A stretch of 29,665 nt of DNA from a virus (taxonomy: Duplodnaviria > Caudoviricetes): IMG/VR virus record IMGVR_UViG_3300032218_003836, positions 1 through 29,665 of that record; one strand, 5' to 3'. This document shows positions 2 through 22,154 of the stretch, piece by piece (the stretch's first letter is position 1; each line of letters begins with the position of its first letter). The notes beneath the pieces were generated by a model that saw only the letters and a list, made by a program, of their open reading frames with translations, did not search any database and was not told the origin of the DNA. A program made the position numbers and the translations under genes.

Positions 2-820
2 GGTTTCGCCAGTTTCCTGCCCAGGCTTAAACCAATCACCAGCCACTTCGCCCATAATCTCCGCTTCACGCTCAGGGCTAGTAACTACACCTTGCGGAGG
101 CAGTTTCTTCGCAAGACCGGCAGCAAAATCCCGCTCTCGTTGAGCGTTCTGCGCTTCCTTTTCTTTTTCAACACGATTGGCGACAAAGGGAAGTTGTGCT
201 CGGTATTTTGCGAGCGCGACATCTTGAGCCAAATTCACATCACGTTGAGCAAGAGCTTGGCCTGCCTTTGACAAGGTATCGGACTTCACATCGCGAGCCA
301 CGTCTGGATGTTCAGCATAGAACTTCTCTGCTTGAATCTTTGCAGCACGATCGCGCTCTTCGGCATATCGCCGTTTAATCATTTCGTTCTGTTCTTTGGC
401 GTATCGCTCTTGCTCATCTGGAGACATCGCCGCTTGCTCGTTCATCATCTTGAACAACCGCTCTGAAGCGATTTTCTGCTCGGGAGTCTCTTCAACACCC
501 TTAGCCACAGCTTCGGTCTGCGTAGGCTGAGCAGGCACCTCAGTACCCGAGAACGAATCGTCCAAACCCTTGGCCCGACGCAGCGCAGCCTTCTCAGCCT
601 CGTCCTTCTTCCCGCTCTCAGCAAACCAGTCCTTGATACCACCGTAAGCGGTATCGATGCCGCGGACTGCCAAGTCTGCAAACGGCATGGCTTCTTTGGC
701 AACATTGGCCATCAAGCCAAGGTTTTGCAACTTTTCTGCCGCGGTCTGCCCAGGCACGCGTTCGATACGGTGTTGAACAGGAGCAAAAGCTTCGGTGTCT
801 GTATCAAGAATACGCGCCAT
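2..820 (-). CDS. Putative internal virion/ejection protein (3'-partial, runs off the left end)
   Basis: Not in the ORF track. ATG at 820 with GGAG upstream; I translated it by hand (MARILDTDTEAFAPVQHRIERVPGQ...) and it is open to base 2. Helical, E/K/A/Q-rich, downstream of tail genes. Contains EQKIASERLFKM. Confidence 0.7.
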   Translation of the reverse strand, partial: MARILDTDTEAFAPVQHRIERVPGQTAAEKLQNLGLMANVAKEAMPFADLAVRGIDTAYGGIKDWFAESGKKDEAEKAALRRAKGLDDSFSGTEVPAQPTQTEAVAKGVEETPEQKIASERLFKMMNEQAAMSPDEQERYAKEQNEMIKRRYAEERDRAAKIQAEKFYAEHPDVARDVKSDTLSKAGQALAQRDVNLAQDVALAKYRAQLPFVANRVEKEKEAQNAQRERDFAAGLAKKLPPQGVVTSPEREAEIMGEVAGDWFKPGQETGET

Positions 821-838
821 GGTGCGGCTCCAAACAAG

Positions 839-1528
839 CTAGGCGTTAAACGAACCGGATTCGGAAAGAATCTTGTCCACAGCTGCAACCGCGGCATTGT
901 ACAAAGCCGGATTACGTTGCTTGGTTTCGGCATTTGCGTACTTGCGATAGACATAGTTGGCCATGTCTTTGCGATCAGTATCCGTCCAAACATTGGCGTT
1001 TTTGGCGCGAGTATTGAATTCGTTCTGGATGTCGGACAGCGCGTTATCAACCTCTTGTTTCTGAGCCATCGGGCGATCGTAAGCAGCCTGCTGAAGCTTT
1101 TGCTTCTCAGCCAGGTACTCGCTCTGGGCTTGCGAGGCAAGACGCTCGGCCGCAATCTTCTGCATGCCGTACTCGCCCATCAGCTGGCCTTCCGCAATGC
1201 CGCGCGAAAGCTGGCTCTGCCGCATACCAGCAAGTGAGCCGCCGCCGCCTTGAGCGAGCTGCGCCGCGAACGCGCGACCAGACTTTTCGCGCTCGCCGGC
1301 AAGAGCTTCTTGGCCTTGCTTCTCGACTTCGCCAACAGCACCCTTGGACACATCGGCCTGCTTCCTAAGCGAACCAAGGTACTGCGCCTGGTTCTGCTGG
1401 GTCAGCGCGTCCATCTGCGCGGCAGTCGGATTAAAGACCAGCTCGTCGGAGGGTAGGTTTGAGTCTTCCGGCGTATTTTTAGGTTGCTTTTTGGCTTCTT
1501 CTTCAACATCACTATCAGTCCAGCCCAT
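839..1528 (-). CDS. Putative internal virion/ejection protein, Q/A/G-rich coiled coil
   Basis: ORF 839..1627; more likely start MGWTDSD at 1528 with GGAGG SD, which avoids overlap with the upstream gene. Composition and position resemble podoviral ejection proteins. Confidence 0.6.
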   Translation of the reverse strand: MGWTDSDVEEEAKKQPKNTPEDSNLPSDELVFNPTAAQMDALTQQNQAQYLGSLRKQADVSKGAVGEVEKQGQEALAGEREKSGRAFAAQLAQGGGGSLAGMRQSQLSRGIAEGQLMGEYGMQKIAAERLASQAQSEYLAEKQKLQQAAYDRPMAQKQEVDNALSDIQNEFNTRAKNANVWTDTDRKDMANYVYRKYANAETKQRNPALYNAAVAAVDKILSESGSFNA

Positions 1529-1546
1529 AACATCCTCCAGCAGCAG

Positions 1547-1575
1547 AGTGTAGCGACAAGTTCCTTGATTGACCA
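1547..1575 (-). promoter_or_regulatory. Candidate sigma70-type promoter TGGTCA-N17-TACACT
   Basis: Intergenic, 17-bp spacer, just upstream of the SD of 839..1528. Confidence 0.35.
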
Positions 1576-1580
1576 GATGG

Positions 1581-3647
1581 TTATGCGGTAAGTACTTGCT
1601 TTCCGCAAAGGATAACCCACTCGCCACCCTGGCCGATGATGGTGTCCGTATTTTCCAGCGCAGCGTATTCCGTTAGATCCTTGGTCCAGCGCACTTCCAG
1701 CACGTTCTCCCGACCGTGAGTAAGCGGCGTGGTAAATGCCACGCAGCCGGGATACCCGGTTGGCATCGTGCCGCAAACCTCACGGTCTTCGGTCATCGTG
1801 TTGGCGCGTCCCATGTAGAACGGAGGTCCGCTGCTGAACCAAGAGTTGCTGTCCCACGTCTCGGTGTTGTTCACCAACGGAATCTGAAGCAAGCGGTAGC
1901 GCGGGTTGCCATCAGGACTGTACTCATCGAGCAACCAGTTCTTGTAGCTGTCTGGGTTGCCAGCAGGAGCGGCGCCATTCCATTGCAGATAGGCAACCTG
2001 CTGGTGCTTGTAATCGTCGCTGCGCCAGCCTGAGTTCAAAATAACGCCAACCTTCTGGGTGTATCCAGCATCGGTCGGCCAGGTCGAGGGGTCCACACAG
2101 CTAGGGTATACGATCGTGCTGGGACTGTAGCCGTTCCACACAGCAAAGGCGTGATGCAGAACAAACCCTTCCGGCACCGGTAGCACAAAGACATCCTCGG
2201 TGACCTTGTTGGCGGGTCCGACTTCAAGATCGACATACGGCAAACCAGCGCTGGTCACAGTGAGCTTCCGCACGGACTCGCGGTATTGACCGCCCCACAT
2301 CGGCACCATGATGATGCTGTAGTGAGCATCGTTGGCCAACATCTCTTCCGGGTAGGTGTTGCTAGCTTCAAGCGGGTCAGCAAGAGCTCCATAGCCAGTG
2401 CCATAGCCGCTGCCTGCGCGTTGACGCAGGGCACGGTCAAACCCGTGCATTCCGTCCTGGACATCGTTGCCGGTGATGATGTCGTTGGGCACCACGGTCG
2501 TGTATGGAATCGACGTGCCGGTCTTAGCGCCACCATGAACGGTCGGCAGGTTCTGGATAGGCTTGGAGCCTTCTTCCTCTGGGAAGTTGCCGAAGTCACC
2601 CTGCTTGTCGCGGACCGTCAGCGGCGCTTCCAGCGTGGCGCACAGATGAAACGACACCAGCTCAAGCGGGTCGTTGGTCACGCCGGCCACACCAGTGTCT
2701 ACATGCGTCAGGAACGTTGTTCCGGTTCCCGTACTGGTCATCAAGACGAAGTTGCAAGCGATGGAGTTGACCGCGCTGGACGCCACAATCTCTTCCAAGG
2801 TAATGACATTGTTCACCGCGGTGACGTTGTAAAGCGGGTCGGCGGCAGCTGCGGCAACAAGACCTGCGGCGATTACGGGCAAAGTATTGCCAGCAAGCAC
2901 AAGGTACTCGTACACCTCACCGTTAATCGACAACTGCAAGACATCGCCAGCAATCGGAGAGCCACCCAACGTAATCGTCCACTTGTCCTTGGTGCCTGCC
3001 GTGCTGGTTTCGTAAAGGCCGGGGCACGACAACTCCCAGACATACACGTTCCACGGGCGGATAGGCAGGTTCTGCTCGGAAATCACCAGCGGGTTGGCGC
3101 GAGCCACACCGCTGCCCGCAGTGCCGCCAGTCGCGCTTTGCTGGATGCCAAACGCGTTGACGCCATCAATCTCCCACTGGCCAATCTTTTCGACGCTTTG
3201 AACATCACCCGTAAGAAAAGACGGCTGGCGCTCAAACAAACGTAGCGTCATGTTGTAGCGAGACATGTCCACGTTGGTCAGCTCGCCAAAACCACCAGCG
3301 GCGCCATAACCTGTGACCGCAAACGGCTCTGCGCGCTGATCGATCGAAAGCGAAAACTCGGTGAGCGACACCGGATACTGCGGGTCTTGCAGAGTCATGC
3401 TGTTGAACAACTGCTGGAACGGCGGCGCAAGAAACGGCCAAGACACAATCGGGCTACCGTTAGAAGCCGAAGCCGGGCCGGTCCACGGCAAGACCCACGA
3501 TAGCTTGAACCTGGACTGCGTCTCGACCACGTCCTGAAGGTTCGCCTCATCGGCAGCAGCCTGCATGGCAACAAGCGGCTCGTTCACATGCTGAGTCGTC
3601 AGCTTGACGCCGCGGGCAAAACGCTTGAATGGAAACTGCTTGGGCAT
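1581..3647 (-). CDS. Putative tail/virion structural protein (688 aa) with an inserted sheath-like beta domain
   Basis: Long ORF with GAGG SD in the tail gene cluster; beta-rich, aromatic/Pro-rich composition. Confidence 0.6.
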   Translation of the reverse strand: MPKQFPFKRFARGVKLTTQHVNEPLVAMQAAADEANLQDVVETQSRFKLSWVLPWTGPASASNGSPIVSWPFLAPPFQQLFNSMTLQDPQYPVSLTEFSLSIDQRAEPFAVTGYGAAGGFGELTNVDMSRYNMTLRLFERQPSFLTGDVQSVEKIGQWEIDGVNAFGIQQSATGGTAGSGVARANPLVISEQNLPIRPWNVYVWELSCPGLYETSTAGTKDKWTITLGGSPIAGDVLQLSINGEVYEYLVLAGNTLPVIAAGLVAAAAADPLYNVTAVNNVITLEEIVASSAVNSIACNFVLMTSTGTGTTFLTHVDTGVAGVTNDPLELVSFHLCATLEAPLTVRDKQGDFGNFPEEEGSKPIQNLPTVHGGAKTGTSIPYTTVVPNDIITGNDVQDGMHGFDRALRQRAGSGYGTGYGALADPLEASNTYPEEMLANDAHYSIIMVPMWGGQYRESVRKLTVTSAGLPYVDLEVGPANKVTEDVFVLPVPEGFVLHHAFAVWNGYSPSTIVYPSCVDPSTWPTDAGYTQKVGVILNSGWRSDDYKHQQVAYLQWNGAAPAGNPDSYKNWLLDEYSPDGNPRYRLLQIPLVNNTETWDSNSWFSSGPPFYMGRANTMTEDREVCGTMPTGYPGCVAFTTPLTHGRENVLEVRWTKDLTEYAALENTDTIIGQGGEWVILCGKQVLTA

Positions 3648-3653
3648 ATGTCC

Positions 3654-5002: not shown

Positions 5003-5004
5003 CG

Positions 5005-5715
5005 TTATCTCGCAGTCGGGTTGACGGCTTCAGGAAGCGAGACTGGAACCTCTTCTTCTTCCTTGTCGTGCAGTTGAAGCAATCGTTGCTTGGCGATGTC
5101 TTGCATCGGAGGCGGCGTGAACAAGCCTTCCTTTTCCCACTTGTCCCGCTGCGATGCGACTGCCTTTTCAAACGCACTAGGTTGACGCTCGCGTTGACGC
5201 AGCGCGCTAGGACCAGCGGCTACAACCATCTTGGGCTGCTTAACTTCGCCAGGCTTTTGCGCAGGAGCAGCCATCGCGGGACGCGGCGGCTCTTTGGTCT
5301 TGAAAGGCTCAGGCGTCGGCGCTTGAGGTTGCGGCGTAGGAGCGCGCGGTTCTTCAATCCGCTGCACCTGACCGCGCTCCATGCGAGCTACTAGGTCTGG
5401 GTTTTCTTTGCGAAGAAGTTGTTCAATTCCAGGATAGTCTGGCTGTGCCGACTCCAAATCAGACAGGCGATCGTTAGCTTCTCTCAAATGCTTTGGAATA
5501 AGCATGTCTTCAATCTGACCGTTCTCTCTGTACATTTGATTAAGCACATCTTTAGGCCACCTAGAACGGTCTTGGCCATACTTGGACTTATATCGTTGTA
5601 CGTTTTGAGTTGCAGAATCAACATATTGAAGATGCTTATCAACAGCCTCCTGACCCATTTCTTGCATGAGATGGTTTGCCAGCCGCTGATGAATAGGTAA
5701 CTGCTTGTCAGCCAT
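5005..5715 (-). CDS. Hypothetical protein (236 aa): helical N-domain, Pro-rich linker, C-terminal shared motif
   Basis: TAATG coupling to the upstream gene; contains MQDIAKQRLLQL. Confidence 0.65.
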   Translation of the reverse strand: MADKQLPIHQRLANHLMQEMGQEAVDKHLQYVDSATQNVQRYKSKYGQDRSRWPKDVLNQMYRENGQIEDMLIPKHLREANDRLSDLESAQPDYPGIEQLLRKENPDLVARMERGQVQRIEEPRAPTPQPQAPTPEPFKTKEPPRPAMAAPAQKPGEVKQPKMVVAAGPSALRQRERQPSAFEKAVASQRDKWEKEGLFTPPPMQDIAKQRLLQLHDKEEEEVPVSLPEAVNPTAR

Positions 5716-9582: not shown

Positions 9583-9951
9583 CTACTTGCCGTACTTACC
9601 ACCCATCACCGGCTCTTCATCCTCGATGCTCTCGCCCAAGCCGGGGTGCTTGGCGTACATCGGGTGCGGCGGACGCATCGGGTGCTTGCCGTGCATCATC
9701 GGCTTGCCGATACCAATCATCACAGCAACGCCTTCCGGCTTGCCGCCACTCAGACCAGGCTTGCCGTGTATCATCGGCTTGCCGGCGCCTTCCTCCGAAG
9801 CGGGAGTAGTTTCGGGGGTATCGGCAGACATGTCCTCTTCCTCTTCGTAGTCATCATACTTGTGACCCTTGGAGGCGCCCATCTTGTCAGCCTTGTGGCC
9901 GTGCATGTTCTTAAGCCGTTCCTTGGCGATGTCCTGAATCGAGTGCTTCAT
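9583..9951 (-). CDS. Low-complexity His/Met/Pro/Gly/Lys-rich protein (122 aa)
   Basis: GGAG SD; fills the portal-adaptor gap; internal GKPMxHGK repeats; N-terminal IQDIAKERLKNM. Confidence 0.7.
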   Translation of the reverse strand: MKHSIQDIAKERLKNMHGHKADKMGASKGHKYDDYEEEEDMSADTPETTPASEEGAGKPMIHGKPGLSGGKPEGVAVMIGIGKPMMHGKHPMRPPHPMYAKHPGLGESIEDEEPVMGGKYGK

Positions 9952-9959
9952 AGTGTCTC

Positions 9960-11996
9960 CTACTTACTAAACTCGTCCGAGCCTTCCGGCTTGGCATTGG
10001 CAACTTCAACTTGGCGAGCCGTATCATCAGCGCTACTGGCAGGACCAGCATTACCCTGTGCGTTTGCATTGGCCGGCGGTGCCCCTACAGGCATCGGAGG
10101 CGTCTTGCCGCCACCACCCCCAGCCGCTTGGCTTTCCGGGGCTCCTGGGGCCGCTGGCGTCATCATTTGGAGGATGTCTTGGTAGTAGGCATCCACGGCG
10201 TCTTGTTTCTCGATCGGCAGCGCATAGAACTCATCCGAGCGGATGAACTGCCCAGCCACTTCCGCAAAGATGGGGAAGTTGTCGTTTGGATAGAACTTGA
10301 CCGTCTTGCGCATCACCGGCATCCCATCGGGACCAACCGGCTGACGCAAATCCTGCACTTGAAAGCCGCTCTTGATAACCGCATCCAACGCACGCTTGGC
10401 AGTAATGAAGTCCGCAATCGGCTTCTGCGCTCGCAGCGGGTCACGGTTGTCCTGAATCAGCTTGATGGCATCCGGCGGAGCAATGGCGCCCATCTGCGCA
10501 AACTGCATGATGCGCTGCTGCCGAGCTTCAACGTCGTCACGGAACAGCGTGTCGGCTTCGATGAACACCTGCGGGTCTTGCGACAGGTCGCCACTACGCA
10601 CCATCGTGCCAATCGCCGAGCCATAACGGTCAAACTGCTTGATGAACTTTTCTTGCGGGTAGTACGCCTGCATGTACAGCAGTGCAGTGCGACCGTGGCG
10701 CTCCATAATCTTCTTGATGTTGCGCTTGGTCACACCAAACTGCACTTCGTCGTTGGCCACGATTGCATCGACCGCACGGCCCGTTACGATGCCCGGCGTG
10801 CGCTTGCCCTGCGAAGTACCGTGAATACCCGTCGAATCAGCCAGAGCAGATGCAGCAGACGCCGGCAACTGCACAGCATACTGCGGAAGCGGCAGACCTT
10901 GCCATGCTTGCGGAGGCATACCAGCTCGGTGGTAAATCTTCTCACCCGCCTTGCTGGTAAACGCATCCGGCGCGATTCCCGAGTTGTGCGCAATCAGAAT
11001 CTTCGGGTTGCTCATCAAGCGAGCATTGGTCAGGATTTGGTTCCAGCTTGCGCTGTACGCGTACTGACCTGGCAGAGCCTGCTCGACCAAGCCAACGCCC
11101 CAGAAGTCGAATGGCACGCTGGTGTACTTGTGAATCTCCAACGGCATACAACGCTGCGGGGTCCAGCCAGATGCTAGCACAGCACCACCGCTACCGCACA
11201 TCAAGAACCAGTGGCCGCTACGGCAGTACACTTCCAGAACCTCGATGCGGTCTGGCGCCATGCGCTGATAACCACTCCACCAGTTCAACTGCTGAAGCGG
11301 AGGCGGCGCTTGGGCGATCACATCTTCCTTGTCCGGGAACTTCTGCCGCAGCTGCGACTTGGTGGTCACGCGCGACACAGCCAGAAAGCGGCTGTCTTCC
11401 GGGCGAGCGATGGCGGGTTCCGCGCGGATGCGGTCAGGGCCAAACACTTCTGGCTTGAGATTGGAGCCATCCATGGTCGCCAGCATTGCGCTGGTTCCAA
11501 ACATGATGCCCCAATCGATCATTTCCATCGCAGCGTATAGAAGCTCGCCACGACGGCTGTAGTAGTCCAGCGCCTGCTCATCAGCGGCAGCGCGCATCAA
11601 ATCTTCAATCGCATCGCTCGCGGCATACGCGCCCCACGATGGAAGCGTCACTTCCAGACGGGCCGAGGCGTTGCGGAACTGCGGCAGCGTGATGTTGAAG
11701 CTCACGTCGCGCACACGGTTGAAGTACGCCATTTCCATGCCGGCGCGAATCACGATGTCGCTGGGCGTATAGGCGCGGAAGTTCGTAATGACATCGCGGC
11801 ACAGCCACCAGAGGCGCTGCATCGGTGCCATTTCGTTGTAGAACTGGCTGCACATCCGAGCGATTTCCGGCGGCTTAAGCGACGGTGGATCGTTCGGGTC
11901 GTTCCAATCGTATTCAATCGACGACTGGGACTGCTGAAGCTCTGCGGGATTCCACAGGTCTTGCTGCTTGTCGTCGATAACGAGGGACGTTTGCAT
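9960..11996 (-). CDS. Portal protein
   Basis: 678 aa; segments such as IEVLEVY, FWGVGLVEQALPGQ, NARLMSNPKILI, ADSTGIH and TGRA are typical of P22/T7-like portals; disordered Pro/Ala-rich C-terminus. Confidence 0.8.
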   Translation of the reverse strand: MQTSLVIDDKQQDLWNPAELQQSQSSIEYDWNDPNDPPSLKPPEIARMCSQFYNEMAPMQRLWWLCRDVITNFRAYTPSDIVIRAGMEMAYFNRVRDVSFNITLPQFRNASARLEVTLPSWGAYAASDAIEDLMRAAADEQALDYYSRRGELLYAAMEMIDWGIMFGTSAMLATMDGSNLKPEVFGPDRIRAEPAIARPEDSRFLAVSRVTTKSQLRQKFPDKEDVIAQAPPPLQQLNWWSGYQRMAPDRIEVLEVYCRSGHWFLMCGSGGAVLASGWTPQRCMPLEIHKYTSVPFDFWGVGLVEQALPGQYAYSASWNQILTNARLMSNPKILIAHNSGIAPDAFTSKAGEKIYHRAGMPPQAWQGLPLPQYAVQLPASAASALADSTGIHGTSQGKRTPGIVTGRAVDAIVANDEVQFGVTKRNIKKIMERHGRTALLYMQAYYPQEKFIKQFDRYGSAIGTMVRSGDLSQDPQVFIEADTLFRDDVEARQQRIMQFAQMGAIAPPDAIKLIQDNRDPLRAQKPIADFITAKRALDAVIKSGFQVQDLRQPVGPDGMPVMRKTVKFYPNDNFPIFAEVAGQFIRSDEFYALPIEKQDAVDAYYQDILQMMTPAAPGAPESQAAGGGGGKTPPMPVGAPPANANAQGNAGPASSADDTARQVEVANAKPEGSDEFSK

Positions 11997-12029
11997 GTTC
12001 TTTGGTCCCCGTGAGAAAACAGCGAAACT

Positions 12030-12058
12030 AGATTACGTCAAGTTTTTGAGGATGGCAA
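12030..12058 (-). promoter_or_regulatory. Candidate promoter TTGCCA-N17-TAATCT upstream of the portal gene
   Basis: Intergenic, near-consensus hexamers with 17-bp spacing. Confidence 0.45.
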
Positions 12059-12060
12059 GA

Positions 12061-12453
12061 CTAACTCCAAGCTGTTCCAAGGTCTTGCATAGAATCCAAA
12101 ACCTCTTCGGTTTCCTTGCCCTTCTTGGACTGGTCGTAAAGACCCTTGGCCGTGTTGATGCCGCCTTCCATTTCAGAAGCGGTCGGCGCTTTCTCTTTCT
12201 TGTCAGCGGTGACAGCGCCAGCAGCGCCGCCAAGAACACCACCAACGACTGCGCCCACAGGCCCGGCAACCGCTGCGCCAGTGGCGGCACCGCCCATGGC
12301 ACCTTTGATACCGCCGGAGACGCGATCCATAGCAGATGGGCTGGTATTAGCACGCTCGGCAGCTTGCTTTTCGGCAAGTCGCTCCGCAGCAATCTGCTTG
12401 CTAAGTCCAGCGCCAGTCCACATGTCGTCATCTTCGTCGTACATCGGTGCCAT
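12061..12453 (-). CDS. Glycine-zipper protein (130 aa), possible ejection/pilot protein
   Basis: Start MAPMYDE with GGAGG SD; GAMGGAATGAAVAGPVGAVVGGVLGGAAGA hydrophobic Gly zipper; contains SKQIAAERL. Confidence 0.6.
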   Translation of the reverse strand: MAPMYDEDDDMWTGAGLSKQIAAERLAEKQAAERANTSPSAMDRVSGGIKGAMGGAATGAAVAGPVGAVVGGVLGGAAGAVTADKKEKAPTASEMEGGINTAKGLYDQSKKGKETEEVLDSMQDLGTAWS

Positions 12454-13012: not shown

Positions 13013-14413
13013 TTAGACCGGGGCGGCGATGCCGATCAAGATACCGTTGCTCAGCGGCTCGGTGCAGACCTGCTCTGGCATCAGAGCGCGGGTCGCGCCC
13101 CACTGAGTCTCGCCCTGCAACTTGACCAGCGGATTGCTGCCCGGTCCGTTCACGCCCAGCCACACGCCCTCTTCCTTACCGCGGAACAGGCGCTCCCACG
13201 ACTCGTACCGCATGGAGATAGCCATGCCGTCCGGGCACAGTTCCGAGCACATGATCGGAACCTTGCTCACGCCGTAGCCCGAATCGTTGTCCTCTTCCGA
13301 GGGCAGCGGGGCAGCCGGGTCCATCTTCTTGATCTCGTTCTGCGGCTGCACACGGAGATGGCCGTCGAGCGTACCAATCAGCGACTGCGGCAGCGCGTTC
13401 ATGGTGTTCCAGCTCATCCACGTCGCGGTCGGGCGCTTACCCGACTTGGTGCGGATGGTGCCGTACAGCTTCAGGAACTCGATGGTCGAAAGCGTGTCGC
13501 CGCCCTGCGCGTTCGTGTTGTTCACGATCGCGAAGTTCGAGCGAATGCGCTTCGTCAGCGGGTCCGTCAGCGAACGGTCGTTGCCGAAGTGGATCTGCTG
13601 GGTCAGGTTCGAGATGACGCCAGTCGGGTCACCAACAAACGCGCCCACCGGGTCGCCCAGCGGATCGAACACGCACGGCGTGTCGATGTTGTCGCCCGAC
13701 ACGGTCGCCGCGTTGAACGCCTGCGAAGCAGCGCCCACCAGCAGCACCGCGCACGGAACGCCAGACGGCACGCCCGAGGTGTTGATGTTGGCAGCCAGCG
13801 TGATGGTCGAGGGACCAATCGCGGTGATAGCCTGCGGACCACCAGCCAGAGTGGCGTAGGTGTCCAAACGCACCAACTGCACGGTGTTGTTCGGACTCGC
13901 AACGATGTCATCGAAACGGCCGTGGTAGCCGTAGGTCGTGATCAAGTTGCTCTTCTGCCACACCAGGCCGATCGGCGAACCAGCAGCAATGTTGCCCACG
14001 CCCTGAAGACCGCCACCACCGATGAACGCGTAGCGCGTCATCTGCTTGGCGATGTCGTTCAGCATGTTGTCCAATTCGTCCGCCGGCTCCACAGCCAGCG
14101 AGCCCTTGACATCTTCCGCCGCGAGGAAACCCAGCAGGTCGATCTGGCAGCGAGCCAGAACGGTCTTGCTCTGCACGGTCAAGCGCAGGAAGCCCTGCTG
14201 GCCCGGCTTCGGCTCCACGTTGCCGATCGTCGAGACGACCGAGCCGTTACGCTTGACGCGCAGGCCGATGATCGCCACGTCGCCCGACCACGAACGGCCC
14301 TTGACGGGAAGCTTCGACCAGAACGCGGTGTCGGTCTGAAGCAGGTTGTGAATCACCTTGTCGGTGCGATCGTTGATCAACACCGCAGCAATGGTCTGAA
14401 AACTAGCTGCCAT
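13013..14413 (-). CDS. Major capsid protein (HK97 fold inferred)
   Basis: 466 aa, AAGGAG SD, strong codon bias, follows scaffold; long helix ending YAFIGGG, central insertion domain, C-terminal CTEPLSNGILIGI pattern. Confidence 0.8.
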   Translation of the reverse strand: MAASFQTIAAVLINDRTDKVIHNLLQTDTAFWSKLPVKGRSWSGDVAIIGLRVKRNGSVVSTIGNVEPKPGQQGFLRLTVQSKTVLARCQIDLLGFLAAEDVKGSLAVEPADELDNMLNDIAKQMTRYAFIGGGGLQGVGNIAAGSPIGLVWQKSNLITTYGYHGRFDDIVASPNNTVQLVRLDTYATLAGGPQAITAIGPSTITLAANINTSGVPSGVPCAVLLVGAASQAFNAATVSGDNIDTPCVFDPLGDPVGAFVGDPTGVISNLTQQIHFGNDRSLTDPLTKRIRSNFAIVNNTNAQGGDTLSTIEFLKLYGTIRTKSGKRPTATWMSWNTMNALPQSLIGTLDGHLRVQPQNEIKKMDPAAPLPSEEDNDSGYGVSKVPIMCSELCPDGMAISMRYESWERLFRGKEEGVWLGVNGPGSNPLVKLQGETQWGATRALMPEQVCTEPLSNGILIGIAAPV

Positions 14414-14425
14414 TTTTCATTCTCC

Positions 14426-15265
14426 TTAGTGACGGGTGTTGAACTGCTCGCGCACCCACTGAAGATAATTACCCTTGGTCACGGGCTCGTTGTTCATGTT
14501 GGGAACAGCGGACGCGGGACCATCAATACGCGGTGGAGCCGCGCGCTGCACCTGCGCTGCCTGCGCAGGAGCCGATTGCGATTGCACGTCGCCGTACACA
14601 TCGCGATACATGGCAACAATCATGCGCGGCTTCACACCTTCAGCCAGCATGGTCGTCAAACGGACCTCATCCCACTTGGGGCAGAAGTTCTGAAGCTTGG
14701 AGAAGTTCTCGTCGTATGCAACATTGGCCTGCGCAGTCTCAACTCCTTGCCAACGCTGGTTGTGCATCTGCACCGACTGGTTCATCTGCTCCAACTTGTT
14801 TTCCAGCGAGCGAATCTGCTCGACCAGCTTCGGATTAACCTCTTCACCCTCATCCAGCATGCGCTGCAACCAGTCGCTCTGGCTCTCGTTGGGCTTCGGG
14901 GCGCTAGCCTGCGGGTCAGCCTGCACAACTTGGCGAGCCAGCTGCGACTCCATTTCAGCCATACGCTGCTGCATCGACTCCAGATTGGCCATAGCCATCT
15001 GGTTTTCCTGCATCAGCCGCTCATACTTGGTCCACGACACCCGCTGCGGGGTGCGGTCAGCAGGAGCCGCCTGGCTGGAGGACGGAGGGGCGCCCTCCGA
15101 GCCAGACGCCTGCACCTCAGTTGAGTGGCCCGAGGTCTCTTGCGATTGGTAGGAGGACGACTCGCTAGACGACACCTCCGGCGCCGGTGCGCTGGGCGTA
15201 ACCGCAGCCTCCGAAACCTGAACGTCCTTGAAAATCTGAGCCATCGTGCCACTAGGAACAGGCAT
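14426..15265 (-). CDS. Capsid scaffolding protein
   Basis: GGAGG SD; disordered acidic N-terminus, RVSWTKYERL then coiled coil, Pro-rich tail; immediately upstream of the capsid gene. Confidence 0.7.
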   Translation of the reverse strand: MPVPSGTMAQIFKDVQVSEAAVTPSAPAPEVSSSESSSYQSQETSGHSTEVQASGSEGAPPSSSQAAPADRTPQRVSWTKYERLMQENQMAMANLESMQQRMAEMESQLARQVVQADPQASAPKPNESQSDWLQRMLDEGEEVNPKLVEQIRSLENKLEQMNQSVQMHNQRWQGVETAQANVAYDENFSKLQNFCPKWDEVRLTTMLAEGVKPRMIVAMYRDVYGDVQSQSAPAQAAQVQRAAPPRIDGPASAVPNMNNEPVTKGNYLQWVREQFNTRH

Positions 15266-15357
15266 AGTATCCTCCGTGCGAGAGCATTTAGCTGTCGCTG
15301 TTAAAATGCAAGTGTTATCGTACCTTTACCCAACTTTTTTCCCAACTTCCAATCCCT

Positions 15358-16947
15358 TTAACCAAAGAAATCAGACTCTTGCGGATCGACGGCAAAATCG
15401 AAGTTGTCCATCGACCCATTAGCCATAGCGCGCTCCAAGTCACGCATGTACGCATCGAGCGCATTTGTAGGCTCGCTTCTGGTTTCCGGCGTCTGGTTGG
15501 CCGGCAATGCTTGCACCACACCAAGCAGAGCCAAACCAAAGGCAACTGCCAAGTCGTCGTGCCCGTTCTTGGGCGCAGCAGGCTTGCCACGCTTGTCGTA
15601 ACACAGCGCGTTAAGCTGCTTGGCCAGACGATGGCAACCAATGTCCCAGCGGTTGTTACCGCTCGCGCCTTCGTAGATTTCACCGTACAGAATGCCGCGC
15701 GTCTGCACGTCAGTACGCCAGCCGTGACGAGGCAGCATGGTTGGCGACAATCCACCAAACGCCGTCATGTGGTACATCGAAATACCGGCGCCACGCAAGA
15801 AGTCGCAAAGGCCAAGACCTTCAGCAGCTGTTTCGATAACCGTCAGCGGCGAACCATACGCCTTGATGAGCTGCAAGCATGGACCTTCAAAATCACGCGT
15901 AGGCTGCCGAATCTCCTGCGTCAGCGCGATGCACCTGTCGGTGATGTCGATGATGACCAAGCCAGTCGGGTCGCCTTTTTCGTTTGAACCAGGCGCGGGG
16001 TCGATGCCGACCACATACTGGTGCGCAGGGTTGTACGGATGCAAAACGACGATGCCGCATTCGTCCGGGTCGCGCGGGTCGCCACGCGGTGTGGGAACTT
16101 GGCGGCGCAGGTATTTGTCGCCGCTCAGCAAGAACGCTTCTTCTGGCGTAGTCGGGTGCTCCTGCACCATGAACGGGCGCTTGTGAAGCGGCAGCGCACG
16201 ACGCTCACGCACCCACCAATTCGACTCGTAGCGGCCCAAGTTGTGCTGCTTGATGTACTCCTTTTCTACTTCGAGCAGGGAGCCATCGATGCCAACAGGG
16301 CTGCGGTATTCCGTGTGGTCACGCCAGCAAAAGAACACCTTGTGAAAGGCGCTCTCTGGGTCGGACCAGATGTGATAGAAGTCGTCTTCGCCACCAGCTG
16401 TGGACTCCAGCAGCAGCGTGCCTTCTGGCGCTACCTTGATAGACGCCAGCGTTTCACCAAGGTCATCGTAGTCTCGAACTTCAGACAGGTGCGCAAAGTT
16501 CAGCGGCATCGAACGAAGCACGGGCGAGTTGGCCGTCACAAACAGCATCTGCGAGCCGTTGGCAAACAGAATCTGGTGGTCGTTCTGGCGATCGATCGCC
16601 ATCAGGTCCATCAAGATTTCGTTGCCTTTGTACAGATTGTAAGCCGTAAGCGACATCTGCCTGGCGTTGAAGTCCGACTGCATACCTACAGCGCAGATAG
16701 CGCCAGGCTTGAATAGGCAAAGGCGAAGCTGCCAGACCAAGGCGATCGTGGTAATCCACATCTGGCGTCCCTTGAGAAACACCAGCTTCTGCTTGGCGCT
16801 AAGGGCTTCAAGCGCCTTTTGCTGCGGAACCGATACACGGAAATCAACCTCAGTACGGTCCTTGTTCTTGATGCGAAAACACTCAGCAAACGCGCGAGGC
16901 GACGAAACCCATTGGTCCAGCAACAAGTCGATTTCGTTATCGTTCAC
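15358..16947 (-). CDS. terL: Terminase large subunit
   Basis: FRIKNK, Walker A-like LKGRQMWITT, Walker B AHLSE, coupling motif LESTA, nuclease motifs VVGIDPA and HDDLAVA. Confidence 0.92.
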   Translation of the reverse strand: MNDNEIDLLLDQWVSSPRAFAECFRIKNKDRTEVDFRVSVPQQKALEALSAKQKLVFLKGRQMWITTIALVWQLRLCLFKPGAICAVGMQSDFNARQMSLTAYNLYKGNEILMDLMAIDRQNDHQILFANGSQMLFVTANSPVLRSMPLNFAHLSEVRDYDDLGETLASIKVAPEGTLLLESTAGGEDDFYHIWSDPESAFHKVFFCWRDHTEYRSPVGIDGSLLEVEKEYIKQHNLGRYESNWWVRERRALPLHKRPFMVQEHPTTPEEAFLLSGDKYLRRQVPTPRGDPRDPDECGIVVLHPYNPAHQYVVGIDPAPGSNEKGDPTGLVIIDITDRCIALTQEIRQPTRDFEGPCLQLIKAYGSPLTVIETAAEGLGLCDFLRGAGISMYHMTAFGGLSPTMLPRHGWRTDVQTRGILYGEIYEGASGNNRWDIGCHRLAKQLNALCYDKRGKPAAPKNGHDDLAVAFGLALLGVVQALPANQTPETRSEPTNALDAYMRDLERAMANGSMDNFDFAVDPQESDFFG

Positions 16948-17318
16948 AGCTCACCATCTTCAGGCTCAGCAGGAATGTCCAGAATCGTCTTCTTGCGCCT
17001 CCTCTCGGCTTCGATGGCAGAAGCGGCTTTCTCCAAGGCAGCGCGCACACGATCGGTCGAGCCAACCTTCTTGGGGCCAGACACCTTGGAGTTGATGTTG
17101 GCCATGGCGCTAAACACCGCTGCTGCTGCCCGATGGTCTGGCCTCTCCGCCGCTACCGCGTCCTTCAGCAGAGCCATACCAATAATGTTTAGGTCCGCTG
17201 TCGACAAGCGTGAATGGGAGCGGGTAAGCGCAAAGGATGCAAGGTCCGTGCCTTTCAGGGCCGGGAGCTCCAATGCACCATCTTCCGATTGCGCCCGCCG
17301 CAATACCATCGGGTCCAT
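16944..17318 (-). CDS. Putative terminase small subunit (start uncertain: 17318, 17534 or 17552)
   Basis: GTGA overlap with terL; helical core; position only. Confidence 0.45.
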   Translation of the reverse strand: MDPMVLRRAQSEDGALELPALKGTDLASFALTRSHSRLSTADLNIIGMALLKDAVAAERPDHRAAAAVFSAMANINSKVSGPKKVGSTDRVRAALEKAASAIEAERRRKKTILDIPAEPEDGEL

Positions 17319-17859
17319 CGCCGGCGTTGATGCTGGAGAGGAAAAGTTGCTTTCGGTAGAGAGACTGCTGCTTTGAAAGTCGCTCCCCTCGGTAGTGAAT
17401 CTTGATTTGGATGGCCCACTGGAAAATGTTGTAGTGCCATCGCTTTCTTGATTCGATGTCGGCTCGACAGCTTTGTACGAGGTGTTTTGAAAGGGTGAGA
17501 AATGCCTCTGCTTTGTGTTCTCGGTTTCGCTCATTTGGATCGCCCCCATCACCCAGCATTTCCGAAATCATCGCACGACGAATCTTGAACCGCTGATATC
17601 CTATTTTGGTTAGCGTTGGAAATCCAAGCTTTCCCCAATCAGAAACAAGTGGTTGCAACTTTTCTTCGTGCGCTCGCTTTCCAGCCAACAATCTGTAGTG
17701 CGACTCGGTAATCAGATCGTAGTATCTAAACGCAGCCCATGGACCAACATTGCACTCAAGCGCAACGAAGGTTTCTGGCAGGTATAACACATCGAGCTTG
17801 GCAATCTCCGGCGCATACCGAATGCAATGCCTGATGTACTCTGGCGTGTAGCCTTTCAT
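17110..17859 (-). CDS. Hypothetical protein; 3' part overlaps the putative terS in another frame
   Basis: ATG with purine-rich upstream sequence (GGAGGGG); protein-like composition for about the first 180 aa. Confidence 0.5.
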   Translation of the reverse strand: MKGYTPEYIRHCIRYAPEIAKLDVLYLPETFVALECNVGPWAAFRYYDLITESHYRLLAGKRAHEEKLQPLVSDWGKLGFPTLTKIGYQRFKIRRAMISEMLGDGGDPNERNREHKAEAFLTLSKHLVQSCRADIESRKRWHYNIFQWAIQIKIHYRGERLSKQQSLYRKQLFLSSINAGDGPDGIAAGAIGRWCIGAPGPERHGPCILCAYPLPFTLVDSGPKHYWYGSAEGRGSGGEARPSGSSSGV

Positions 17860-17889
17860 TACTCTCTTTGTTCCCCTCCAAAGAGCTAA

Positions 17890-18477: not shown

Positions 18478-19003
18478 CAGTTTCCTCGCTGGGCTCTTCC
18501 TTGTCTTCCTTGTCGTTCTTGACTGCCTTGCCCTTCTTGCCGCCAAAGACGTAGTTGCCCCACGATTCACGATGAATCTTGTTCTCGCTTACCAGCAATC
18601 CCAAAGCTTCATCAACTGTATCGGTGCTGTAGCCCTTGGCGGTCATCGCCTCGACGATTTCCACGCGCCGTGCTTTTTGAATTTTCTCCAGAAAGCCAAG
18701 GATGAAATCTTTCACGTTAGCCGGCTGCGGCGGCTTGACTTGGGTGTCAAAAGTGGGGCGGCGGATGTAGTCATCATCCCACGGGCAACCTTCGTCGGAA
18801 CCACGTTCGCGCCGGAACGCATCGCGCGCGCGCCGAATCAGCAAACGCATACGCACGCGTGCATCGCCACCACGCTTGAAGCGCAGGATGTAGTCGCAGT
18901 GGGCCATCGAAAGATAGTCGTCCAGCTGCCACGACACGGGACCACCAACATCGTGGCCGCACATGCGCAGCAGTTCCAAGTCGGTTTGATCGTACTGGTT
19001 CAC
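18467..19003 (-). CDS. Hypothetical protein with C-terminal winged-helix-like domain
   Basis: FILGFLEK...RVEIVEAM..KGYSTDTVDEALGLLVSENKIHRESWGNY fits a wHTH pattern; GTGA-coupled with GGAGG SD. Confidence 0.55.
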   Translation of the reverse strand: MNQYDQTDLELLRMCGHDVGGPVSWQLDDYLSMAHCDYILRFKRGGDARVRMRLLIRRARDAFRRERGSDEGCPWDDDYIRRPTFDTQVKPPQPANVKDFILGFLEKIQKARRVEIVEAMTAKGYSTDTVDEALGLLVSENKIHRESWGNYVFGGKKGKAVKNDKEDKEEPSEETDVA

Positions 19004-19500
19004 GTTACTTCCTCCCTGTGCTTCAGTTCTTCCAGCAAATCGGTCATGAACTTCTTGGCCAACTCTTCCATCAGCTTTCTGCCTGGACCTTTCAGCGGCT
19101 CAAGTGCGCGCTGATGGCACTCGATGACAAGCGAAGGCCAACCATCAGGGTCGCGCTCTTCATATCGACGAGGCGCCCCGCGTTCCGGGGTGCCCATGCT
19201 GGCAGTACAGATGATAATCGGAATGCCCAAGTACCTGTAGCGAATAGACACGGAAATGTAGGCAAGCTCGTCTACTACCGCCAAAGCTTGGTACATCGCC
19301 GTCATTTCTTCATGGGTCCACCCAGAAGACATTTCAAGCGGTAGGCGATCTGTGCTGGCCGACTCTTGATTACACAGCTGCCATGAAATGTTGTAGTACC
19401 GCCCCGCAAATCCAGGTGCAGGCACCTCGGCATTCGCGAATACGTCGCCTTCTTCGGACGGCACTGGCGGATTTAGCTGGTCCTCAAACTCATCAAACAT
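19000..19500 (-). CDS. Hypothetical protein (166 aa)
   Basis: First gene of the leftward run; acidic N-terminus; stop overlaps next start. Confidence 0.6.
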   Translation of the reverse strand: MFDEFEDQLNPPVPSEEGDVFANAEVPAPGFAGRYYNISWQLCNQESASTDRLPLEMSSGWTHEEMTAMYQALAVVDELAYISVSIRYRYLGIPIIICTASMGTPERGAPRRYEERDPDGWPSLVIECHQRALEPLKGPGRKLMEELAKKFMTDLLEELKHREEVT

Positions 19501-19558
19501 GCAATCCGCACCTTATCGCAAGTTTGGGCGCATTGGCAAGCATGTTTATGCAAAAGGC

Positions 19559-19587
19559 TTGACAAGCCGTGCAAAGGGGCGCAATCT
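19559..19587 (+). promoter_or_regulatory. Promoter TTGACA-N17-CAATCT for the HTH/recombinase pair
   Basis: Perfect -35, 17-bp spacer, SD GGAGG follows at 19595. Confidence 0.55.
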
Positions 19588-19606
19588 TGGTCACGGAGGT
19601 AGCAAG

Positions 19607-19786
19607 ATGGACCTAGTTTCGGAAAAAGAAGCGGCGCGATTGCTGCAAGTTAGCGAAGCCACCCTGCGACGGTGGGTGCAACGCAAGATTCTGGTGGTTT
19701 ACCACACGCCGACCAAGCGGCGGCGGTATAAGCTGTCGGATATCAATGAAATACAGACGAACATTACCCCTGTGGAGGTAAAATGA
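19607..19786 (+). CDS. MerR/excisionase-like HTH DNA-binding protein (59 aa)
   Basis: MDLVSEKEAARLLQVSEATLRRW...RRRY, classic HTH_17/MerR-type pattern; GGAGG SD. Confidence 0.85.
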   Translation: MDLVSEKEAARLLQVSEATLRRWVQRKILVVYHTPTKRRRYKLSDINEIQTNITPVEVK

Positions 19787-20448
19787 CCCGCGTCGTCGCC
19801 TACATTCGCGTTTCTACCGCAGACCAGGCTGATTCTGGGTTGGGCTTGGCTGCGCAAGAAGAGAAAATCCGCGCATACGCCAAGCTTTACGACTTGGAAA
19901 TCGTGGCGATGGAAATAGACGCGGGTATTTCTGCCAAAACCATGGACCGTCCTGCGCTTTTGCGGGCGCTCGCCATGCTTGGCCGTGGAGTTGATGGGGT
20001 TTTGGTGGCCAAGCTCGATCGTTTGACGCGTAGCGTGCGGGACTTGGGCGTTATTCTGCACGAATACTTCGTGTCCACGCCGTACACGTTGTTTTCGGTG
20101 ACCGACCAGGTTGATACTCGCAGTGCCTCTGGCCGTTTGGTGCTGAACATCTTGGCTTCGGTGTCAGAGTGGGAGCGCGAAATCATCGCAGAACGCACCA
20201 AGGCGGCGATGTCGGTGCTGAAAGCCAGTGGCAAGCGGTGTGGTGCAGTGCCTTTGGGCAAGAAAGCGCTGGTTGATGGCACGCTTGTGGACTGCGAAGA
20301 GACTCAGCGGGCGATGTGGATGGCCAAGCAGCTGCGAAAGAACGGCGCTTGCTGGAGTGAGATCGTCCAGGCGCTGAACTGCAACTACCGCACGCAGACC
20401 GGTGGTCTGTTCAACATCACCAGCGCGCGCCGATACGCTATGGCCTGA
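19783..20448 (+). CDS. Serine recombinase (resolvase/invertase family)
   Basis: YIRVST catalytic Ser motif, G.SAK..DRPAL, KLDRLTRS, EREIIAERTK, then GAVPLG and a short C-terminal helical domain. Confidence 0.93.
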   Translation: MTRVVAYIRVSTADQADSGLGLAAQEEKIRAYAKLYDLEIVAMEIDAGISAKTMDRPALLRALAMLGRGVDGVLVAKLDRLTRSVRDLGVILHEYFVSTPYTLFSVTDQVDTRSASGRLVLNILASVSEWEREIIAERTKAAMSVLKASGKRCGAVPLGKKALVDGTLVDCEETQRAMWMAKQLRKNGACWSEIVQALNCNYRTQTGGLFNITSARRYAMA

Positions 20449-20457
20449 AACACCAAA

Positions 20458-20482
20458 GCCCGCCTGGGATATCCAGACGGGC
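20458..20482 (-). terminator. Intrinsic terminator between convergent genes
   Basis: Minus strand GCCCGTCTGG-ATATC-CCAGGCGGGC (one G-U pair) followed by TTTGGTGTTT. Confidence 0.65.
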
Positions 20483-20507
20483 CTTGATGTGATCCCCTAG
20501 AGGAATC

Positions 20508-20813
20508 TTAGTACTTGATGATGGGCGGTTCAAGTTCCGTGCTAACCGCCAGGCGATACGGGCCAGTCGAGTTAGCATCACCACCAATCGTCAATACCGT
20601 GGCATCCGACAAGCCGGTCACCACACGCTGCTCATTGGCCTTAACCGTGAACACCGACTGGCCACCATCGATTTTCAGGATGTGGTCCTTGGCGCCGTCG
20701 TCGTTCTTGTAGACAAGCGACTGAGCGCCAGAAGAACCAATCAAGCTATCGAAGTTAAAGCTTTGCGCCGTGTTGGCCAGCAGCGTCCCTTCCTTAGCAC
20801 AAAAGTTAGCCAT
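20508..20813 (-). CDS. Putative virion accessory protein (101 aa), paralog of the N-domain of 20837..21568
   Basis: AAGGAGG SD; beta-rich; direct sequence similarity to its neighbour. Confidence 0.65.
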   Translation of the reverse strand: MANFCAKEGTLLANTAQSFNFDSLIGSSGAQSLVYKNDDGAKDHILKIDGGQSVFTVKANEQRVVTGLSDATVLTIGGDANSTGPYRLAVSTELEPPIIKY

Positions 20814-20836
20814 GATTAGCCTCCTTGAAGCTTAGG

Positions 20837-21568
20837 TTAGGCGACGGGCAGCATGAACAGAACCAGACGGCCGTTCACATTGCCAGCATTCTTGGCGGTC
20901 AACACCTTAAAGCTAGCGCCGCTGGCCAGCGTAGCGTTAGCAACCACGCTGGTCGAAGAAAACGAAACACGACCAGCCACAGCAGCCGTGCCGGTAAAGG
21001 TAAGGATGGTAGCAGCAGCTGCGGTTTGCAGGGTCACAGCAGTCGCAATCGCCGGAGTTCCATCAAACATCATGTAGCCACCCAACACTTCATGCTTACC
21101 AACCAAACCAGTGTAGGTGGTGGTGCCATCAGCATCGGCAATATCAATCACCATCATCGAAAACGGCGACGGCGCTCCAGCAACAGTCGTCGTAACGTGC
21201 GCGCCCCTCACAAGCTTGGCATCGGTCACCGCGCCATCGGTGATACCCGCGGTTCCGATCGTGCCGCCATACGGCTTGAAGAAGGTCGCCGGCACATCGC
21301 TGCTGGTCGCCATCGCGCGGTACGCACCGATCGAACCAGCGTCGCCGCCGATCGTCAGCACTTGCCAGTTCTCCACGCCGCTGATCACACGCTGCTCGCC
21401 CGGCCTAACCGTGAACGACAAACTGTCGATCTGAAGCTTGTGGGTCGAAGACGCATCATCATTGCTGTACGCAATCGAGGTGGCGTTCACGCCAAGCAGC
21501 GCCTTGAAGTTGAAAGTCTGGGCAACGCCAGCGGCGAGCGTATCTTCCTTGGAAGCGAAATTAGCCAT
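20837..21568 (-). CDS. Putative capsid fibre/decoration protein (243 aa)
   Basis: Start MANFASKED with AGGAG SD; GITDGAVTDAKL linker is typical of phage fibre repeats; C-domain resembles 12476..12982. Confidence 0.6.
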   Translation of the reverse strand: MANFASKEDTLAAGVAQTFNFKALLGVNATSIAYSNDDASSTHKLQIDSLSFTVRPGEQRVISGVENWQVLTIGGDAGSIGAYRAMATSSDVPATFFKPYGGTIGTAGITDGAVTDAKLVRGAHVTTTVAGAPSPFSMMVIDIADADGTTTYTGLVGKHEVLGGYMMFDGTPAIATAVTLQTAAAATILTFTGTAAVAGRVSFSSTSVVANATLASGASFKVLTAKNAGNVNGRLVLFMLPVA

Positions 21569-21636
21569 AGTAAGGTCTCCTAGTTGGGTGCCGATTCTAC
21601 GGCGTGAAGCACGCTTGCCATAAATAACAACAAGCG

Positions 21637-21816
21637 TCAAGCCTTTTTCTTCATTTTCGCCAAGCGTTCCTTGGCAATCTTCTGGATGCCATCCTCTTTT
21701 TCGCCCACATGCTCAGGCAACTTGTGGTCGTGCTCCGTTTCCTTCTCCCACCGCTTGGCGATTTCAGGATGCTTGGCGTACATGAATCCGCGCTGAGCCT
21801 GAGACTTGAAAGGCAT
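21637..21816 (-). CDS. Small phage protein of the MPFKS..QR.FM type (59 aa)
   Basis: AAGGAG SD; MPFKSQAQRGFMYAKHPEIAKRWEKET resembles small proteins I recall from uncultured phages; ends GIQKIAKERLAKMKKKA. Confidence 0.7.
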   Translation of the reverse strand: MPFKSQAQRGFMYAKHPEIAKRWEKETEHDHKLPEHVGEKEDGIQKIAKERLAKMKKKA

Positions 21817-21818
21817 AG

Positions 21819-22154
21819 CTACTTCTCCTTCATCTTCTTGAGCCGCTCGCCGGCAATGCTTTGCACCCAGCTCTTGCCAGGGTTTCCGCCCCACAACAAC
21901 CAGGCTTGCCAGCCCTTGCTATCTTGGCCCCAGCCTTCGCCAGAAGCATCGACAGCGTGGCGAGCAAAGAAGCTCTTCATGCGCGCCATGGTTTCTTCGG
22001 TCACCGGCTCGCGGTTGGCCAATTGCTTGGCGCGGGCTAGGCCGACTTCAGTGCCACCGCGGTTTGAAGGCGATTGCTTCTCGCGCAGCTCAAGCCCATG
22101 GCGAGCAGCGGAAGCAACAGCAGGAGGTGGAATGTGAGTCGTGTCTTTGGCCAT
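21819..22154 (-). CDS. Conserved phage head-associated domain protein (PP..V..A..GL...GGT.VG.ARA..L...SFFARH...AW.LWGG)
   Basis: Motif set I recall from domains fused to phage head morphogenesis/prohead protease proteins; ends VQSIAGERLKKMKEK. Confidence 0.7.
   Translation of the reverse strand: MAKDTTHIPPPAVASAARHGLELREKQSPSNRGGTEVGLARAKQLANREPVTEETMARMKSFFARHAVDASGEGWGQDSKGWQAWLLWGGNPGKSWVQSIAGERLKKMKEK

Follow-up and report, generated by a model that had tools for sequence, protein, structure and literature searches.

The peptides that load cargo into encapsulins are short, uncleaved and often C-terminal; they are carried by unrelated cargo proteins and dock to the inner face of a shell with the HK97 fold. 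In bacteriophage T4 the capsid targeting sequence (CTS) sits at the N-terminus and is cut off by the prohead protease, and prohead protease sites end in Glu. Only the CTS is described as conserved among the T4 internal proteins, which it directs to the scaffolding core (PMC3012670). DarB's N-terminal stretch of 30 residues is reported to direct a reporter to the capsid of phage P1 (PMC9024508), and the ejection proteins of P22 are described as co-assembling with the scaffold, with no requirement for the portal (PMC12005531). The window analysed here is the entire IMG/VR record IMGVR_UViG_3300032218_003836, a 29.7-kb (29,665-nucleotide) genome fragment of an uncultured phage that is likely to be short-tailed, with a podophage-like genome. 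Seven of its proteins carry copies of one short peptide, referred to below as the tag, which may be an address for loading into the phage head.

The tag has the consensus [M]-[Q/K]-x-I-A-x-x-R-L-x-x-[M] around the core I-A-x-x-R-L and is found once in each carrier, in 7 of the 34 proteins of the window (Table 1). An earlier note on this DNA had listed seven such peptides. All are present on the minus strand, at or adjoining the places given there; the sites were right, although three of the ranges spanned just the first 9 residues. The pattern Q.IA..RL fits 6 of the 7 copies, the seventh being a variant with the Q immediately before IA. The expression IA.[EQ]RL matches 7 of the 34 proteins (9068 aa), and 2000 residue shuffles gave a mean of 0.02 and a maximum of 1. 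The comparison with a shuffled background that the note had proposed thus places the motif far above chance, with 7 occurrences against 0.02 expected. A position-specific scoring matrix (PSSM) made from the 7 copies yields those 7 and no other at 10 bits or more in the window proteins, and in a leave-one-out scan every copy ranks within the top 7 of 8660 sequence windows.

The motif was picked after looking, and a motif-blind statistic was therefore added, which is the maximum number of other proteins with a similar 9-mer. At a BLOSUM62 sum of at least 26 the best 9-mer, which is the tag, recurs in 6 other proteins. The 20 global shuffles gave at most 3 and the 20 local ones at most 4, so that none of the 40 reached 6. 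At the laxer thresholds of 20 and 23 real and shuffled sequences are not discriminated. Since codons differ between the copies, the conservation is at the protein level, as had been proposed. The motif is therefore real and conserved at the protein level, and chance is excluded.

The tag is rare elsewhere. In the whole of IMG/VR the strict DNA pattern Q.IA.ERL..M (with CGN for Arg), which 4 of the window copies fit, matches 57 stretches and never occurs twice on a contig. Around 20 further IMG/VR matches belong to one family, which carries EQ[VT]IADERLAVMR. A closely similar peptide, SQQIAEERLKQMVKDA or NQQIAQERLKDMVKKA, was also seen as a single copy in one protein of unrelated large phage contigs (L049, L059 and L068; 30-172 kb, two of them approximately 94.5 kb).

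The carriers had been described as unrelated apart from the peptide. This holds for nearly all of them, in that the similarity found by all-vs-all BLASTP spans 10-23 residues at the tag. The exception is the pair encoded at 2-820 and 839-1627, both Ala/Gln/Glu-rich, which have a low-complexity match (23% identity over 206 aa) with an E value of 2e-4 in a 7-sequence database searched without composition correction. A PSSM scan of the window proteins agrees with the observation that the tag is absent from the replication proteins, the terminase, the portal and the large tail proteins. Of the 7 copies, one is N-terminal, two are C-terminal, two are near a terminus and two are internal.

Table 1. 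Tag copies, the proteins that carry them, and candidate partners in the window.
Feature	Positions	Strand	Remarks
N-terminal 273 aa of a ~750-aa protein, cut at the window end	2..820	-	No PHROG or Pfam family
Tag QKIASERLFKM, residues 115-125 of the 2-820 protein	446..478	-	Sole conserved island in that region of the orthologue alignment
Protein of ~230-262 aa, Ala/Gln/Glu-rich; start uncertain; T7 gp14-like by position only	839..1627	-	
Tag MQKIAAERLASQ, from residue 155 of the 839-1627 protein	1130..1165	-	Inside the family's best-conserved block
236-aa protein, after the 1048-aa tail protein	5005..5715	-	N-terminal helical domain (confident), linker, tag, conserved C-terminal peptide
Tag MQDIAKQRLLQL, residues 204-215 of 236	5071..5106	-	AlphaFold2 helix 205-220, low pLDDT
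122-aa protein, Gly/Pro/His/Met-rich, directly downstream of the portal gene	9583..9951	-	No family
Tag IQDIAKERLKNM, residues 5-16 of 122, N-terminal	9904..9939	-	
Portal protein, candidate partner	9960..11996	-	PF16510 P22_portal, E 4.2e-9; phrog_156, E 2.1e-15
129-aa glycine-zipper protein, immediately upstream of the portal gene	12061..12450	-	phrog_6056 'internal virion protein', E 2e-5
Tag SKQIAAERLAEK, residues 17-28 of 129, a variant in which Q adjoins I	12367..12402	-	
Putative major capsid protein, candidate partner	13013..14413	-	Position, conservation; 0 family matches
Putative scaffolding protein, candidate partner	14426..15265	-	Position, coiled-coil-like composition, conservation
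59-aa protein, widespread 37-aa core with clade-specific tag tail	21637..21816	-	
Tag IQKIAKERLAKM, residues 44-55 of 59, C-terminal	21652..21687	-	
111-aa protein, solo copy of a 100-residue all-alpha domain	21819..22154	-	Domain also in polyvalent and portal-fused phage proteins
Tag VQSIAGERLKKM, residues 97-108 of 111, C-terminal	21831..21866	-	Second half of the last predicted helix, 90-110

Close relatives of the phage are found in IMG/VR and JGI metagenomes, with putative capsid proteins that are 90-91% identical; one of these (G001) is a complete genome of 52,429 bp with terminal repeats. Against approximately 90% identity in the capsid protein, the five structural-block carriers have orthologues that are 24-56% identical and the two small carriers have orthologues that are 78-85% identical, and in each orthologue alignment the tag is a conserved island. 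When the six-frame open reading frames (ORFs) of G001 were scanned with the window PSSM at 12 bits or more, 8 ORFs were matched, all of them orthologues or paralogues of carriers, and nothing else. The scan gave 8 matches in 7 ORFs for G002 and 5 matches for L002.

The most distant syntenic relative is a 61.5-kb contig (G004 contig C1, loci L074-L077) with 54% capsid identity, which is syntenic with the window from the primase through the tail fibre. The tag is kept there at the N-terminus of the post-portal protein, on the T7 gp15-like protein (the counterpart of the 2-820 protein) and twice on the post-tail protein, and is degenerate on the glycine-zipper protein. In an ORF set from which the doubly tagged ORF had been dropped, [QE].IA..RL has 2 matches in this relative against a shuffle mean of 0.03, and 0 of 2000 shuffles reach 2. 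Across 33 distinct copies, A and R are present in all 33, L in 32 and I in 30, counts that are partly circular in that the copies were selected with the window-derived PSSM. Less constant are Q at -2 (19/33), M at +8 (19/33) and E at +3 (17/33), the last position being otherwise occupied by Q, A, R, D, K or G.

The positions i, i+1, i+4, i+5 and i+8 lie on a single helix face, and the amphipathic helix proposed in the earlier note is borne out by AlphaFold2 (AF2), whose models of two carriers, the 236-aa and 111-aa proteins, are helical at the tag. In the 236-aa protein the tag helix follows a disordered Pro-rich linker and is part of a flexible tail, with a low predicted local distance difference test score (pLDDT). 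The 111-aa protein is predicted to be all-alpha (pLDDT 89, predicted template modelling score 0.80), with residues 90-110 forming one helix, of which the first half is confident and the second half, corresponding to the tag, is less so. Foldseek searches against the PDB gave no match at E <= 0.001 for the model of either protein.

Five of the carriers are encoded in the head-tail block, with the portal gene having tagged genes on either side. By the T7 gene order, these five occupy the places of internal core or ejection proteins. They are thus interpreted as internal or ejection proteins on the grounds of gene order rather than homology. The genes at 839-1627 and 2-820 are the last two ahead of the one for a giant protein of 2075-2316 aa in the relatives, and the 2-820 protein is T7 gp15-like by position only. 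Candidate homology to characterised ejection proteins is confined to the 129-aa protein, which matches 'internal virion protein' at E 2e-5; the 839-1627 protein has one PHROG match, a weak one to 'minor head protein' (E 0.0023). The Gly-zipper Pfam matches of the 129-aa protein are below the curated cut-offs, and the remaining carriers match no family in PHROGs or Pfam. Two of the families in this block also have a second invariant terminal peptide that the clade retains, which is C-terminal in both: PVSLPE..N.T in the 236-aa family (5005-5046, minus strand) and HPGLGESIEDEEPVMGGKYG in the 122-aa family (9583-9645, minus strand).

The genes for the two small carriers lie between the replication genes and the late genes. 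The 59-aa protein has a 37-residue core (MPFKSQAQ...HPEIAKRW...LPEHV) that is present in approximately 1700 IMG/VR stretches, on contigs of 5-190 kb, and has no Pfam family. Its C-terminal tail is variable, being the tag in this clade alone and Lys/Arg-rich or of other amphipathic kinds elsewhere. Nineteen proteins are longer forms of the core, and the 11 of these scanned against Pfam gave no informative family. The nearest same-strand neighbour of the core gene belongs to head, packaging or connector functions in 16 of 63 distinct loci, and in 10 of these 16 (10/63 loci) the gene directly upstream encodes a portal or connector. Tail, lysis and DNA metabolism neighbours account for 1 locus each of the 63, and the rest have no informative match. 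When the C-terminal tails of the family were compared with the other ORFs of their own loci (+/-10 kb), own-locus ranks were even over 50 tails, with no signal; the comparison has little power, as the flanks seldom reach structural genes and the tails are of low complexity. The 59-aa and 111-aa families are adjacent in 1 of 70 loci, that of a clade member (L078).

In the 111-aa protein, residues 1-100 make up a domain that has 3890 representatives (E<=1e-3) and lacks a Pfam description; it may be N-terminal, C-terminal or interior in proteins of 110-1588 aa. Among the 150 relatives listed (P0133-P0282), 30 were scanned against Pfam. These contain ART-PolyVal (6), DUF5824 (4), ddrB-ParB (3), portal (3), DUF2213 (2), DUF5872 (2), prohead protease S78 (1), DUF1391 (1) and MuF (1, a weak match below the cut-off), with 9 having no family and two carrying two families each. 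The domain of the 111-aa carrier therefore recurs in large multidomain phage proteins beside known polyvalent domains. Iyer et al. (2017, PMC5512222) are understood to take portal and MuF fusions as a sign of virion packaging and injection, and to describe solo versions as well. The families of both small carriers are thus tied to phage heads elsewhere, which is new support for the loading reading, as is the retention of the motif down to 54% capsid identity.

It had been suggested that in both small proteins the peptide was appended after a self-contained domain. This is so for the 59-aa protein, with its lineage-specific tail on the 37-aa core. The copy of the 111-aa protein, by contrast, overlaps the terminal helix of its own family, W-x-x-x-[IV]-[LAVM]. 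The domain is the protein end in 56 of the 150 homologues, with a short helix W-[ACV]-x-x-[IV]-[LAVM]-x-x-[LM]. The proposed search for homologues of the small carriers that lack the tag gave the same division, in that the 59-aa tails elsewhere are without it and the native helix of the 111-aa family resembles it. Judging from the alignments and the model, the clade has remodelled and extended this native terminal helix into the tag consensus.

The favoured reading, to which even chances are given, is that the tag is a docking helix that fastens the seven carriers to one common partner in the assembling head and hence packs them into the virion, from which they would leave with the DNA. Such a helix would span one and a half heptads, its hydrophobic side being made up of I, A, L and M, and the invariant Arg would contribute a salt bridge. 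Either the scaffolding core would serve as the partner, in the manner of T4 and P22, or the inside of the capsid would, in the manner of encapsulins. The scaffold is favoured because of the precedents of the T4 core and the P22 ejection proteins, with the portal or the giant internal protein less likely. Complex prediction with the putative capsid protein, the putative scaffold and the 59-aa protein, run without controls, gave scores of 0.17 and 0.16 against a mark of 0.32, and does not weigh on binding in either direction. The tag would remain uncleaved, as suggested by the failure to find a prohead protease: no match to such a family came up in the window (33 proteins against PHROGs, 28 against Pfam) or in the 27 + 5 of 68 greedy ORFs scanned in the complete relative, where small ORFs were not all covered. 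Through the tag, small solo domains of an effector type could be delivered that other phages fuse to portal or polyvalent proteins. A wider form of this proposal, which is tentative and somewhat less probable, is that the I-A-x-x-R-L helix is a general, position-independent and uncleaved address that loads any bearer, both core ejection proteins and swappable solo effector domains, as a viral counterpart of encapsulin loading.

Several findings weigh against the docking of these proteins in the head. The most obvious cargo, the giant protein of the relatives (2075-2316 aa; 2075 aa in G001), has no tag by PSSM. No copy is found in L012, an incomplete 18-kb contig of a distant relative with 59% identity in the putative capsid protein, and its glycine-zipper orthologue is without the core residues; the tag can therefore be lost. 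The copy on the gp14-like protein is lost in the relative with 54% capsid identity. The tails of the 59-aa family elsewhere are mostly plain Lys/Arg-rich and fit DNA binding as well as a tag. In the 111-aa family the native terminal helix already has I/V and A/L at the places of the tag, and the resemblance of this copy is therefore partly inherited. The capsid and scaffold assignments are by position and conservation, with 0 families, and the invariance of the core has the circular element given above. Loading into the capsid is therefore plausible but unproven, with the chances for and against it about equal; the carriers are putative virion proteins, and the partners named are candidates.

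It is also possible, if unlikely, that the tag helices bind each other or the giant internal protein in mutual assembly, giving an internal core in the head, or a trans-envelope channel once ejected, rather than a loading address. The A-x-x-x-L-x-x-M spacing fits coiled-coil core positions, the carriers include gp14-like, gp15-like and glycine-zipper proteins, and the untagged giant protein could serve as a hub. The three ejection proteins of P22 are likewise thought to interact, as described in PMC12005531. However, one and a half heptads are short for a stable bundle, two small soluble proteins of unrelated accessory families are tagged as well, and gain and loss of copies protein by protein is awkward for an obligate joint of many subunits. 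A role after injection is improbable. In this case the tag would be a linear motif, common to the injected proteins, that binds one host factor or the membrane. Such a role is consistent with an amphipathic, basic helix in a flexible context, and the domain family of the 111-aa protein occurs in polyvalent proteins that are thought to act early in the host (PMC5512222). Yet 5 of the 7 carriers look structural or internal, with differing expected roles, and there is no obvious reason for one host motif to be on all of them and to be kept down to 54% capsid identity.

The remaining explanations carry less weight. If the tag were a site that a maturation protease recognises or cuts, like those of T4 gp21 or the phiKZ-type sites that end in Glu, this would account for A-x-E within most window copies, and trimming at the near-terminal copies would remove short peptides only. 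Such a site is nevertheless quite improbable, given that Glu is present in just 17 of the 33 copies, with I, A, R and L conserved instead, and that scans of the window proteins and of part of the complete relative's ORFs turned up no prohead protease family. Slighter still is the likelihood of a basic DNA-binding helix, by which the small proteins would ride in with the packaged DNA or condense it. The mostly Lys/Arg-rich tails in the 59-aa family elsewhere and the KMKKKA and KKMKEK endings of the two small carriers would suit this, but conservation falls on I, A, L and one R, whereas charge at the flanks is variable (LASQAQ, LLQLHDKEEEE), and a DNA-binding tail has no need of an invariant hydrophobic face. 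Chance or compositional similarity among E/K/A/Q-rich helices deserves next to no credence. Several carriers are A/Q/E/K-rich and the motif-blind test fails to separate real from shuffled sequences at lax thresholds, but against this stand the 7 occurrences for 0.02 expected, the retention of the motif in orthologues that are 24-56% identical, and the 57 matches of the strict pattern in IMG/VR, which are all single.

The genes of the window are mostly on the minus strand. Matches in PHROGs and Pfam identify a primase/helicase, a single-stranded DNA-binding protein (SSB), a second helicase, a nuclease, a serine recombinase, the large terminase and a portal of the P22/SU10 type. No family matches the putative scaffold, the putative major capsid protein or the large tail proteins, which are assigned by position, size, composition and conservation alone. 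A DNA search of the capsid-portal block against INPHARED phages gave no match. The host of the phage group may be a member of the Verrucomicrobiota, since the 61.5-kb relative sits in a metagenome-assembled genome titled uncultured Chthoniobacter sp., and binning alone is no proof of host.

Upstream of the large terminase are two overlapping long ORFs (16944-17552 and 17110-17859, minus strand). Homologues of both are present in the relative with 54% capsid identity, overlapping in the same way (G004 C1 22121-22840 and 22353-22961). Genes may overlap in this small-terminase region, or a frameshift may be programmed there. On the opposite strand at 19499-20448 are the serine recombinase and, upstream of it, an HTH/excisionase-like gene (HTH, helix-turn-helix). 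Adjoining these are two tandem paralogues (20508-20813 and 20837-21640) with a common 100-aa N-terminal domain that is 49% identical. An invertible switch around the recombinase is not supported, no convincing inverted repeats having been found.

A segmental duplication has given L012 four additional genes, which separate the portal from the next gene that is conserved (9596-12109). The duplicate pairs are 9596-10105/11100-11558 and 10102-11103/11555-12109, and one gene has an HExxH metalloprotease-like motif. A different shared tag in this relative, a 17-residue N-terminus on two post-portal proteins, was rejected, as it is inside the recent segmental duplication.

How short-tailed phages choose the proteins that are packed beside the DNA and injected is poorly understood, and the word stems 'incorporat', 'recruit' and 'scaffolding' are absent from a 2022 review of ejection proteins (PMC8954989). 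If the loading of tagged proteins into the head is true, a short, transferable and uncleaved tag would be a directly testable loading rule. It would explain how accessory anti-host domains are swapped in the virion without gene fusion, and would offer a handle for loading chosen proteins into phage heads. The tagged set is also a computational list of likely virion cargo for an uncultured phage group. In the open-access literature and bioRxiv no paper was found with the strings IAKERL, IAAERL or IAQERL, and nothing was found on a position-independent, apparently uncleaved podophage tag shared by ejection-type proteins and solo accessory domains. Capsid-targeting peptides are known from T4 and P1, and cargo-loading peptides from encapsulins; a position-independent helical tag of a podophage is not found in the literature searched.

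The resemblance to the T4 CTS of IPI-III and Alt, which had been offered as an analogy, is that of a short peptide on otherwise diverse head-internal proteins. The two defining features of the T4 system, an N-terminal position and removal by the prohead protease, are not seen in this phage. One of the 7 window copies is N-terminal (residues 5-16 of 122), the rest being internal or C-terminal, and there is Glu in 17 of the 33 copies and no prohead protease found in the window or the scanned ORFs of the complete relative. The sequence of the tag is also unrelated, and the podophage-like genome contrasts with T4, a myovirus. P1 DarB likewise has a terminal segment as a packaging signal, although that signal is N-terminal and described for DarB only (PMC9024508, in the part consulted), unlike one motif on seven proteins at any position.

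Like encapsulin peptides, the tag is common to unrelated proteins; it is terminal in 3 to 5 of the 7, and would be uncleaved if the failure to find a protease is a guide. Encapsulins differ in being non-viral and containing no DNA; their peptides are unrelated to the tag in sequence, and docking of the tag to the capsid is hypothetical, with the capsid protein itself putative. The P22 system is the precedent for internal proteins of a podophage that are loaded through the scaffolding protein, though the part of PMC12005531 consulted describes no peptide common to gp7, gp16 and gp20. The polyvalent, MuF and portal-fused effectors of Iyer et al. (2017) share with the 111-aa carrier its 100-residue domain, which occurs there with ART-PolyVal, ddrB-ParB and portal domains. 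In the window this domain is solo instead, and has a tag in place of covalent fusion to a head protein.

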